Positions 24,508 to 24,784 of a DNA stretch of 48,475 bases are shown piece by piece; the first letter of the stretch is position 1; each line of letters begins with the position of its first letter. The notes below the pieces were generated by a model. The model searched no databases. It saw nothing but the letters and a program-made list of their open reading frames with translations, and was not told the DNA's origin. Both the position numbers and the translations under genes were made by a program. Source of the stretch: Anaerovoracaceae bacterium (lineage in GTDB: Bacteria > Bacillota > Clostridia > Christensenellales > Borkfalkiaceae); contig CAVBZJ010000001.1 in the NCBI GenBank assembly GCA_963599785.1, positions 17,701 to 66,175 on the forward strand, read 5' to 3'.

Positions 24508-24556
24508 AAAAAAAGGTTGCAACTTAGTATCCCGAAAAGAATACTATATTGCAACC
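24508..24556 (-). terminator. Intrinsic terminator in the operon leader (candidate riboswitch expression platform)
   Basis: Minus strand reads GGTTGCAATATAGTAT-tcttttcggg-ATACTAAGTTGCAACC followed by TTTTTTT (24514-24508). It lies about 200 nt upstream of ATG 24305 and downstream of the aptamer-like blocks. Confidence 0.75.
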
Positions 24557-24700
24557 GGGCGCACTTTTTATCGAACGAATTTCAAGCTTTTTCGGAGTTT
24601 TTAGTGTTTCCGCTTACGAATCTCGAAAATATCGTTTATAATAAAGTTCCTTGGCTTTGCGTCACCGCCTCTCGACGGTTTTGCCGACAAGTATTAAATT
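24549..24700 (-). promoter_or_regulatory. Candidate c-di-GMP-I (GEMM-I) riboswitch aptamer
   Basis: Minus strand 24685-24653 reads GGCAAAACC GUC GAGA GGC GGUGACGCAAAGCC. This matches the conserved GGCAAACC block, a GNRA-capped hairpin, and the GGGACGCAAAGCC block. GCCCGGUUGC (24560-24551) resembles the conserved 3' segment and overlaps the 5' arm of the terminator. I could not resolve the P2 helix by eye, and it looks about 100 nt longer than usual. Confidence 0.6.
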
Positions 24701-24754
24701 TTTTGAAAGGATTTCGCGTGGCAAATAACCTTGCAACTCTCCTTTGTTAATGGC

Positions 24755-24784
24755 ATTATACAATCAGCAAACCGCTCTTGTCAA
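24755..24784 (-). promoter_or_regulatory. Consensus sigma-A promoter of the riboswitch / SipW / TasA-like operon
   Basis: Minus strand reads TTGACA (24784-24779), an 18-nt spacer, then TATAAT (24760-24755). Confidence 0.65.

Follow-up and report, generated by a model that had tools for sequence, protein, structure and literature searches.

How is transcription controlled of an operon, found in uncultured gut Clostridia, that encodes a SipW-type signal peptidase together with unannotated secreted proteins, and is a c-di-GMP riboswitch part of the answer? The question is raised by the leader that precedes this operon on the minus strand of the window, i.e. the whole stretch of 48,475 nucleotides that was analysed. 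The original prediction held that the leader has its own promoter and terminator, that a c-di-GMP-I (GEMM-I) aptamer lies between the two, and that the downstream genes form a SipW/TasA-like operon. The elements on which the discussion turns are, in the order of transcription, the following (the basis of each assignment is given in brackets):

24755..24784, minus strand: sigma-70 promoter (12/12 match to the consensus)
24706..24745, minus strand: 5'-terminal stem-loop P0 (MFE and centroid folds; found in all leaders)
24690..24695, minus strand: 5' strand of the aptamer closing helix, AAUACU (RNAalifold on 35 leaders, which gives AUACU/AGUAU, and MFE of the nascent RNA)
24659..24685, minus strand: GEMM 'P1' domain (covariance-model alignment; invariant in 31/31 main-group leaders)
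24656..24658, minus strand: AAA linker (GC-AAA-GCC at 24660-24653; model alignment; invariant in all leaders)
24553..24656, minus strand: P2 (model alignment, RNAalifold and folds)
24551..24551, minus strand: C aligned to C92 (model alignment)
24540..24545, minus strand: 3' strand of the aptamer closing helix, AGUAUU, inside the 5' arm of the terminator (RNAalifold and MFE of the nascent RNA)
24508..24556, minus strand: intrinsic terminator (fold energy; conserved in 21 distinct variants)
24306..24507, minus strand: A-rich spacer between terminator and start codon (leader comparison)
14024..24305, minus strand: the operon that is most likely controlled (ORFs)
8622..13882, minus strand: signalling module (Pfam)

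A scan of the window at the Rfam gathering thresholds did not return any RNA family. When both strands of the whole 48.5-kb window were compared with 4227 Rfam families at E<=1, a single match was obtained, which was to the c-di-GMP-I clan at 24694-24546 on the minus strand (33.3 bits; E=4.2e-4 window-wide and E=6e-6 for 24250-24950 alone) and contained an insertion of around 75 nt in the P2 loop. The covariance models thus placed the clan exactly on the blocks that had been proposed, at a score below gathering. The best model was that of the c-di-GMP-I-GGC variant (RF03167), with 33.3 bits as compared to a gathering score of 59. The score on the c-di-GMP-I model proper (RF01051) was at most 33.3 bits and did not reach the gathering value of 35, which is an operational cut-off and not a structural feature; we attribute the shortfall to the penalty for the P2 insertion. 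The c-di-GMP-II model (RF01786), used as a control, gave no match in 24250-24950 even at E<=10. As the match is the only one with E<=1 in the window and as the leader recurs in front of around 50 orthologous genes, it can be considered to exceed chance.

The aptamer spans positions 24695-24540 of the minus strand. The two sequence blocks that had been put forward as the GEMM-I core and the 3' aptamer segment were indeed present, namely GGCAAAACCGUCGAGAGGCGGUGACGCAAAGCC at 24685-24653 and GCCCGGUUGC at 24560-24551. The P1 domain is composed of a 2-bp stem (GC at 24684-83 with GC at 24660-59), a 3-nt internal loop (AAA and GAC) and a 6-bp stem (ACCGUC/GGCGGU) that is capped by the GNRA loop GAGA. 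The hairpin CCGUC-GAGA-GGCGG had already been recognized as lying between the conserved blocks and been given five base pairs, a number that rises to six when the A-U pair is counted. The domain in this form matches the GEMM definition (PMC1950547). In P2, the basal pairing between AGCC (24656-53) and GGUU (24556-53) is followed by two bulged adenines at 24652-51, and beyond the bulge by the pairs GG (24650-49)/CC (24559-58) and ACUUU (24647-43)/AAAGU (24567-63), after which the helix continues as an irregular hairpin of 75 nt (24642-24568). This resolves why P2 could not be drawn by eye in the original prediction: a long irregular hairpin is inserted in its loop, and the extension appears as well in the MFE structure of the nascent RNA. 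The surplus of around 100 nt that had been estimated is corrected to around 75 nt in P2 instead. Considering its non-GAAA GNRA loop and the two bulged adenines at the base of P2, the element belongs to the receptor-less subtype. GEMM RNAs of that subtype have non-GAAA loops and often two bulged adenines near the P2 base, and in GEMM RNAs the length of P2 varies and a terminator overlaps its 3' side in 78 of 322 examples (PMC1950547).

The closing helix AAUACU/AGUAUU is where the element departs most from the Rfam alignment, as the P1 pairing that Rfam assigns to the window contains mismatches and the 3' strand of our proposed helix is shifted by 5 nt. Its five AUACU/AGUAU pairs are standard in 29-31 of the 31 main-type leaders, and the only changes among these leaders are from U-A to U-G; the sixth, outermost A-U pair, which the window does have, is formed in 1 of the 31. 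Without guidance, RNAalifold recovered the closing helix, the P1 domain and the base of P2 from 35 leaders. In the columns of the covariance model G24685 is aligned to G20, A24658 to A47 and C24551 to C92, with a numbering and ligand-contact roles that we take to be those of the Vc2 crystal structures of the Vibrio aptamer. In Vc2, C92 forms a Watson-Crick pair with one guanine of c-di-GMP, and A47 intercalates between both guanines. Judged from the alignment, the three residues constitute the canonical set of contacts to c-di-GMP. Just 5' of the G20 equivalent, the junction consists of UGUC, as compared to an A-rich consensus.

To recover relatives, the protein encoded by the first downstream gene was used and the RNA was not. 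A protein with 48-60% identity was encoded in seven species-representative genomes, all seven of which had the same leader, and a scan of metagenomes yielded 54 further loci (34-60% protein identity) with the element in around 45. The relatives derive from MAGs of uncultured Clostridia/Eubacteriales, mostly from the human gut. Together, around 50 orthologous leaders share the element, their first proteins being 42-84% identical, and it is found 240-250 nt before the ATG at every locus with sufficient upstream sequence and a protein identity of at least about 42%. It is absent from a group with 35% identity (L053-55 and L060). One leader (L004) has been kept despite three mutations in the core and does not match Rfam. 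The closest relative (L062, protein 84% identical) differs from the window at 12 of 161 leader positions, 11 of which are located in the P2 extension. Eight leaders with a shorter P2 passed the RF01051 gathering value of 35: L002 scored 43.8 bits, and the seven compact leaders L044-L048, L051 and L059 scored 51.5-56.2 bits with RF01051 as their best model. Because these shorter-P2 relatives have the same core and pass RF01051, the element in the window is an orthologue of RNAs that are acceptable to Rfam. Both the placement by the covariance models and the orthologues above the threshold speak for the c-di-GMP-I reading, and the leader is very probably a genuine class I c-di-GMP riboswitch.

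The aptamer core was invariant in 31 of 31 main-type leaders and has remained essentially unchanged while the first protein diverged to 42-60% identity. Given that the insert drifts freely at the same time, this points to purifying selection on the sensor. A covariation analysis had been proposed as a check, and its outcome is divided: the P2 extension, the terminator and the 5' hairpin covary, and the core helices never vary. As the core is devoid of covariation, the case for its helices rests on the covariance-model scores and on the constancy of the RNA relative to the divergence of the protein. Among the distant leaders the P1 domain does show changes that are compatible with pairing, as the closing pair of L051 is C-G instead of A-U (a compensatory change), and L044 has U-A for U-G and U-G for C-G. 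The P2 extension exists in three versions that are unrelated in sequence (the type of the window and L062, the L002 type and the main type), all of which fold as a single long hairpin from the same point. RNAalifold on 35 extended leaders left the insert unresolved, as the three types do not align; pairs were therefore counted on the 31 main-type leaders, using a structure derived from L001. In this set 93% of the cells of the P2 extension were paired, as compared to 38-48% in slid controls, and compensatory changes were seen at four pairs, in 13 cells. The number of covarying pairs was not above that of shuffles (188/500), and the insert alone folded weakly better than shuffles (z = -1.8), so that the covariation in the P2 extension is modest.

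The strong terminator that had been described, at 24556-24515 plus a U7 tract, was confirmed, including its overlap with the 3' strand of the aptamer. It consists of a 5' arm (24556-24539), the loop UUUUCG (24538-24533), a 3' arm (24532-24515) and the U7 tract (24514-24508). Its stem of 18 pairs contains one A/A mismatch, and the isolated hairpin folds at -21.8 kcal/mol. A simple terminator scanner did not list it, for which the internal mismatch is the presumed reason. In the 21 distinct variants that conserve the hairpin two compensatory pairs were observed. No fewer than 11 of the 18 nucleotides of the 5' arm are also used by the aptamer, i.e. the GGUU of P2, the C92 equivalent and the AGUAUU strand. 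Since the 5' arm is made of the 3' strands of the aptamer, aptamer and terminator are mutually exclusive and a separate anti-terminator is not needed. The predicted folds reflect this: for the RNA up to the terminator loop (24700-24533) the MFE structure is the aptamer (-34.3 kcal/mol), and with the 3' arm added the terminator is favoured by around 20 kcal/mol and dominates both the MFE (-54.0 kcal/mol) and the centroid fold of the full leader. The ON-switch logic that had been deduced from the overlap holds on these grounds and agrees with the published GEMM model (PMC1950547), which suggests the direction of the switch.

On the basis of the above, events at the leader can be pictured as follows. 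Transcription would begin at the consensus promoter, near 24748, and the 5'-terminal hairpin would be the first structure to form. The aptamer (24695-24540) would fold next, with its P1 domain, AAA linker and lengthened P2, and be closed by AAUACU/AGUAUU. When c-di-GMP is bound, with G24685, A24658 and C24551 as predicted contacts, the aptamer would be held closed during the passage of RNA polymerase over the U-tract; formation of the terminator would be blocked, and the genes for SipW and the secreted proteins would be transcribed. Without ligand, the far more stable terminator would displace the aptamer and transcription would stop at around 24508. A switch of this kind would be under kinetic control. 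We consider it likely that the leader is a transcriptional ON riboswitch of the c-di-GMP-I class, of the receptor-less subtype and with a P2 lengthened by 75 nt; the binding of the ligand and the direction of the switch we infer from the sequence.

The consensus promoter of the original prediction was found at 24784-24755 on the minus strand, with -35 TTGACA (24784-24779), a spacer of 18 nt and -10 TATAAT (24760-24755), and it is the single site with a 12/12 match in 23500-25500. In each of the five orthologous genome loci whose upstream sequence is long enough (L001, L003, L004, L006 and L007), a TTGACA precedes the aptamer by 89-90 nt. The transcript would then begin at around 24748, just ahead of P0, a stem-loop with an outer helix AAAGGA/UCCUUU and an inner hairpin GCAA-GGUUAU-UUGC. 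The inner stem shows compensatory changes from G-C to A-U at two pairs. The outer helix was dropped as covariation support, as it joins a purine-rich to a pyrimidine-rich strand and is around 70% paired in several registers. P0 is situated outside the aptamer and probably serves to stabilize the 5' end of the mRNA. It also accounts for one of the three UUGCAA palindromes, to which alternative antiterminator and terminator pairings had been ascribed. All three copies exist (24736-24731, 24554-24549 and 24522-24517), but they are not a set of alternative pairings: the first lies within this unrelated 5' hairpin and is not kept in the orthologues, and the remaining two are simply the two arms of the terminator.

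Several other explanations of the leader have to be weighed. That the best-scoring Rfam model is RF03167 and that the 5' junction is UGUC instead of A-rich as in the consensus could be taken to indicate a class I aptamer with an altered ligand, either the orphan 'GGC' variant or a GEMM-Ib of the c-GAMP type. Yet the column that defines the GGC variant contains A24658 in the window (GACGCAAAGCC), where the model has GACGCGAAGCC with a G at the A47 position, and on account of this mismatch the variant was rejected. Moreover, the window has the canonical bases in the columns of G20 and C92, RF01051 itself is the top model for the compact orthologues (51-56 bits), and RF03167 probably wins only through its shorter P2 and a cheaper 75-nt insertion, which makes a changed ligand highly improbable. 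Equally improbable in our view is a switch that acts in the OFF direction, or on translation instead of transcription. Both polarities are known in the c-di-GMP-I class, and around 200 nt with a conserved hairpin separate the terminator from the ribosome-binding site; but the use of the aptamer 3' strands as terminator 5' arm implies direct mutual exclusion, and the ribosome-binding site is located 190 nt downstream of the aptamer, to which it is not complementary.

One could also suppose that the aptamer has decayed, the insertion and the missing tetraloop receptor having abolished binding, with a constitutive attenuator or terminator, or read-through governed by another factor, as what is left. 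A window score below the gathering threshold, the core mutations tolerated in at least one lineage (L004) and an insert that folds weakly better than shuffles would fit with this. It is nevertheless very unlikely, given that around 45 leaders, with protein identities of 42-60%, share an invariant core and differ freely in the insert, and that receptor-less GEMM RNAs with a P2 of variable length are a normal subtype (PMC1950547). The resemblance to GEMM might finally be incidental and the leader a protein-binding or other RNA element, a suggestion for which the core without covariation and the presence of additional conserved hairpins (P0 and that which precedes the ribosome-binding site), as further leader signals, can be adduced. 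The Rfam E-values are independent of the visual reading, however, and with eight orthologous leaders above a curated threshold and all hallmarks of the class present, coincidence is extremely unlikely. The reading as a transcriptional ON riboswitch of the c-di-GMP-I class is therefore retained below.

A separate observation concerns the seven most distant leaders (L044-L048, L051 and L059). In these a compact aptamer is followed by a terminator, T1, after which a second copy of the aptamer 3' strand, AAGU(G/A)CGCCCGGUUGCAA, occurs fused to a second terminator, T2. This second copy retains residues that are needed by the aptamer only. When the whole leader is folded, the MFE structure joins the 5' half to copy 2 and places T1 at the tip of a long P2. 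The insert of the window has the same position and a similar length (81 nt as compared to 84-98 nt). As a relic of T1 the insert was not supported, for most pairs had p>0.1 when their local alignments were compared with shuffles (0.04 at best, uncorrected), and a relay model, according to which T2 would be blocked by the 3' arm of T1, was favoured by constrained folding in one of four leaders and was likewise set aside. That the P2 insert is the counterpart of an internal first terminator, with the sensor 5' domain closing with either of two 3' strands, is a doubtful proposition that we hold to be unlikely. Should it be true, then there would be two successive c-di-GMP checkpoints, and the window would represent either a derived form with a single checkpoint or the ancestor of the tandem form. 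Nothing relevant on riboswitches with tandem terminators was found in the searchable literature, and we found no description of such a two-checkpoint design of the expression platform.

Turning to the genes behind the preferred c-di-GMP-I switch, the spacer that connects terminator and start codon contains a hairpin CGGCG-AAA-CGCCG (24358-24346) and the sequence GGAGG (24319-24315), and leads to the ATG at 24305; the hairpin and a AUGGAGGNCGUCAGAAAUG block are conserved in all leaders. The operon encodes five secreted or anchored proteins (24305-23526, 23420-22641, 21913-21155, 21018-20020 and 20005-14024, the last of 1993 aa), which have N-terminal hydrophobic segments and in none of which a Pfam domain was found. 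The products of genes 1 and 4 are not detectably paralogous. The family of the first protein comprises 804 homologues and lacks annotation. Among these genes lies that of the signal peptidase (22629-22030, minus strand), whose assignment to the SipW type was borne out by TIGR02228, where it exceeds the cut-off of 51.85 with 67.8 bits; against the Bacillus SipW model the same ORF scored 62.2 bits, which is below the cut-off of that equivalog. It is most likely that the riboswitch turns on this operon of secreted proteins and SipW-type peptidase.

The label 'TasA-like' that had been attached to the operon fared less well. Homology to TasA/camelysin (Peptidase_M73) was not detected as a Pfam or NCBIfam match or as a sequence match in the PDB, and hhalign of the family profile against TasA of B. 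subtilis gave a probability of 0.3%. In a Foldseek search with an AF2 model of the first protein (pLDDT 66.6) the TasA fibre 8aur_A ranked second, with E=2.8e-3 and a probability of 0.90, yet with a TM-score of 0.26-0.28, which is weak. Thus no sequence homology to TasA was found and the fold match is weak at most, and the label is weakly supported by the modelled structure. By analogy with the Bacillus and Clostridium operons discussed below, the output is predicted to be a biofilm or matrix function.

Directly downstream of the operon lies a module of signalling genes. Its first gene (13882-11951) encodes a GGDEF-REC-HD-GYP protein with intact GGDEF and HHE..GYP motifs, read as a c-di-GMP synthase/hydrolase; the others are those of a solute-binding protein (11930-11118), of a hybrid histidine kinase (11121-8956) and of an Hpt protein (8969-8622). 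The same module order is found behind the same operon in L064 and L065, the upstream flanks of which differ, and a relative that shares the gene order with different upstream neighbours has a protein identity of 59%. A weak promoter-like site was noticed at 13959-13930. The arrangement is suggestive of a local circuit, in which a phosphorelay would set the level of c-di-GMP and the riboswitch would read it. If this is true, then the signal would pass from the solute-binding protein, hybrid kinase and Hpt protein to the REC-GGDEF-HD-GYP protein, and from there via the c-di-GMP level and the riboswitch to the operon of secreted proteins.

By every structural criterion tested, the element classifies as a terminator-coupled c-di-GMP-I riboswitch, which stands out by its long P2, its offset closing helix and its association with these genes. 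It was missed by threshold-based annotation as the long P2 insertion costs too many bits, and around 50 related leaders in MAGs of human-gut Clostridia are in the same situation. The assignment would not surprise a riboswitch specialist, but it is useful for annotation, and it provides a first regulatory handle on an unannotated family of 804 homologues without Pfam domain that is encoded together with a SipW-type peptidase. If the assignment is true, then SipW-dependent secreted proteins would join pili, flagella and adhesins as targets of c-di-GMP riboswitches in Firmicutes.

How does the locus compare with known systems? With sipW-tasA of Bacillus subtilis and sipW-bsaA of Clostridium perfringens it shares a dedicated SipW-type peptidase among genes for secreted beta-rich proteins. 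The expression of tasA in B. subtilis is subject to protein-based control. For C. perfringens, a link between sipW-bsaA and the BsaR/BsaS two-component system has been described (PMC7395162). We found no riboswitch described for either operon, in contrast to what is proposed here, and in the searchable literature no report of a c-di-GMP riboswitch linked to a tasA, sipW or signal-peptidase operon. A further difference with sipW-tasA is that the proteins at this locus have no detectable sequence similarity to TasA and a weak fold match. At the level of the RNA, the element has the clan and the overall fold in common with c-di-GMP-I-GGC (RF03167), but it does not have the defining G at the A47 position. 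The likeness is closest to GEMM-I (RF01051), with which it shares the 2+6 bp stems of P1, the 3-nt internal loop, the GNRA cap, the AAA linker and the bulged AA, as well as the location in a 5' UTR and a terminator 5' arm made from the 3' side of the aptamer, as in the published ON model (PMC1950547). It differs from GEMM-I in the extra 75-nt hairpin of P2 and a score below gathering, in the offset of the closing helix with junction strands of 4-5 nt and a 5' junction that is not A-rich, and in its gene context, an operon of uncultured gut Clostridia in which a SipW-type signal peptidase is combined with secreted proteins that lack annotation.

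The predicted c-di-GMP-I riboswitch leader of the window carries additional elements on either side of its aptamer and terminator:

24706-24745, minus strand: 5'-terminal stem-loop, between the promoter and the aptamer
24306-24507, minus strand: A-rich spacer of ~200 nt, from the terminator to the ATG

The 5'-terminal stem-loop was kept in all leaders. Its 5' strand is purine-rich (AAAGGAG-like) and its inner hairpin changes from G-C to A-U among lineages; the element may act as an mRNA stabiliser or as a further regulatory site. Within the spacer, a small conserved hairpin (24346-24358, minus strand) reads CGGCG-AAA-CGCCG in the window and GGCU..AGCC in others, and the ribosome-binding site is surrounded by the near-invariant block AUGGAGGNCGUCAGAAAUG (24303-24322, minus strand).

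Comparison of the loci that encode orthologues of the operon's first protein revealed variation within the aptamer itself. The P2 extension contains a 14-nt tandem duplication (GCGAGCCUACGUUU twice) in L040 (891-1075), and a 4-nt insertion is present close to its base in L013 (907-1083). The length of P2 is clearly free to vary. In the leader of L004 (719-890), three substitutions occur at core positions that are invariant elsewhere (GGC to GUC, AAAGCC to AAAUCC and AAGGAAC to AAAGAAU), each of which disrupts a pair. The Rfam search of this leader gave no match; its aptamer may be decaying, or the sequence may be an assembly variant.

The genes around the leader were inspected as well, with the following features (L064/L065 being a relative at 59% protein identity):

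26226-28283, minus strand: secreted protein of 685 aa, upstream of the fucosidase gene
14024-20005, minus strand: ORF of 1993 aa with an N-terminal hydrophobic segment
8622-13882, minus strand: signalling cassette (GGDEF-REC-HD-GYP, solute-binding protein, hybrid histidine kinase, Hpt), immediately behind the operon
L064/L065, 14558-19819: counterpart signalling cassette

The N-terminal half of the 685-aa protein consists of repeated Cys-x2-Cys units of ~40 aa each, and its sole Pfam signal is a sub-threshold zinc-ribbon match. No Pfam or NCBIfam domains were found in the 1993-aa ORF; the protein at the matching position in L064/L065 measures 483 aa, and the operon's final structural gene is thus highly variable. 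The signalling cassette is conserved, with an identical gene order in L064/L065 despite different upstream neighbours, suggesting that it serves the predicted riboswitch as a self-contained module for c-di-GMP input. On metagenome contig L008 (1-900), the last genes of an rRNA operon (23S, tRNA, two 5S copies, tRNA) are directly followed by the riboswitch leader; thus, the genomic neighbourhood of the riboswitch cassette differs among lineages.

In seven distant orthologous leaders (L044, L045, L046, L047, L048, L051 and L059), a single compact RF01051 aptamer is followed by two terminators, for instance:

L044, 302-509: tandem-terminator leader, 3'-strand copies at 375 and 448
L045, 934-1128: tandem-terminator leader
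L047, 907-1124: tandem-terminator leader
L051, 910-1126: tandem-terminator leader

We found no description of such a one-aptamer, two-terminator design with a duplicated 3' strand. As the 3' strand of the aptamer, AAGU(G/A)CGCCCGGUUGCAA, occurs in a separate copy before each terminator, the single sensor 5' half could pair with either copy.
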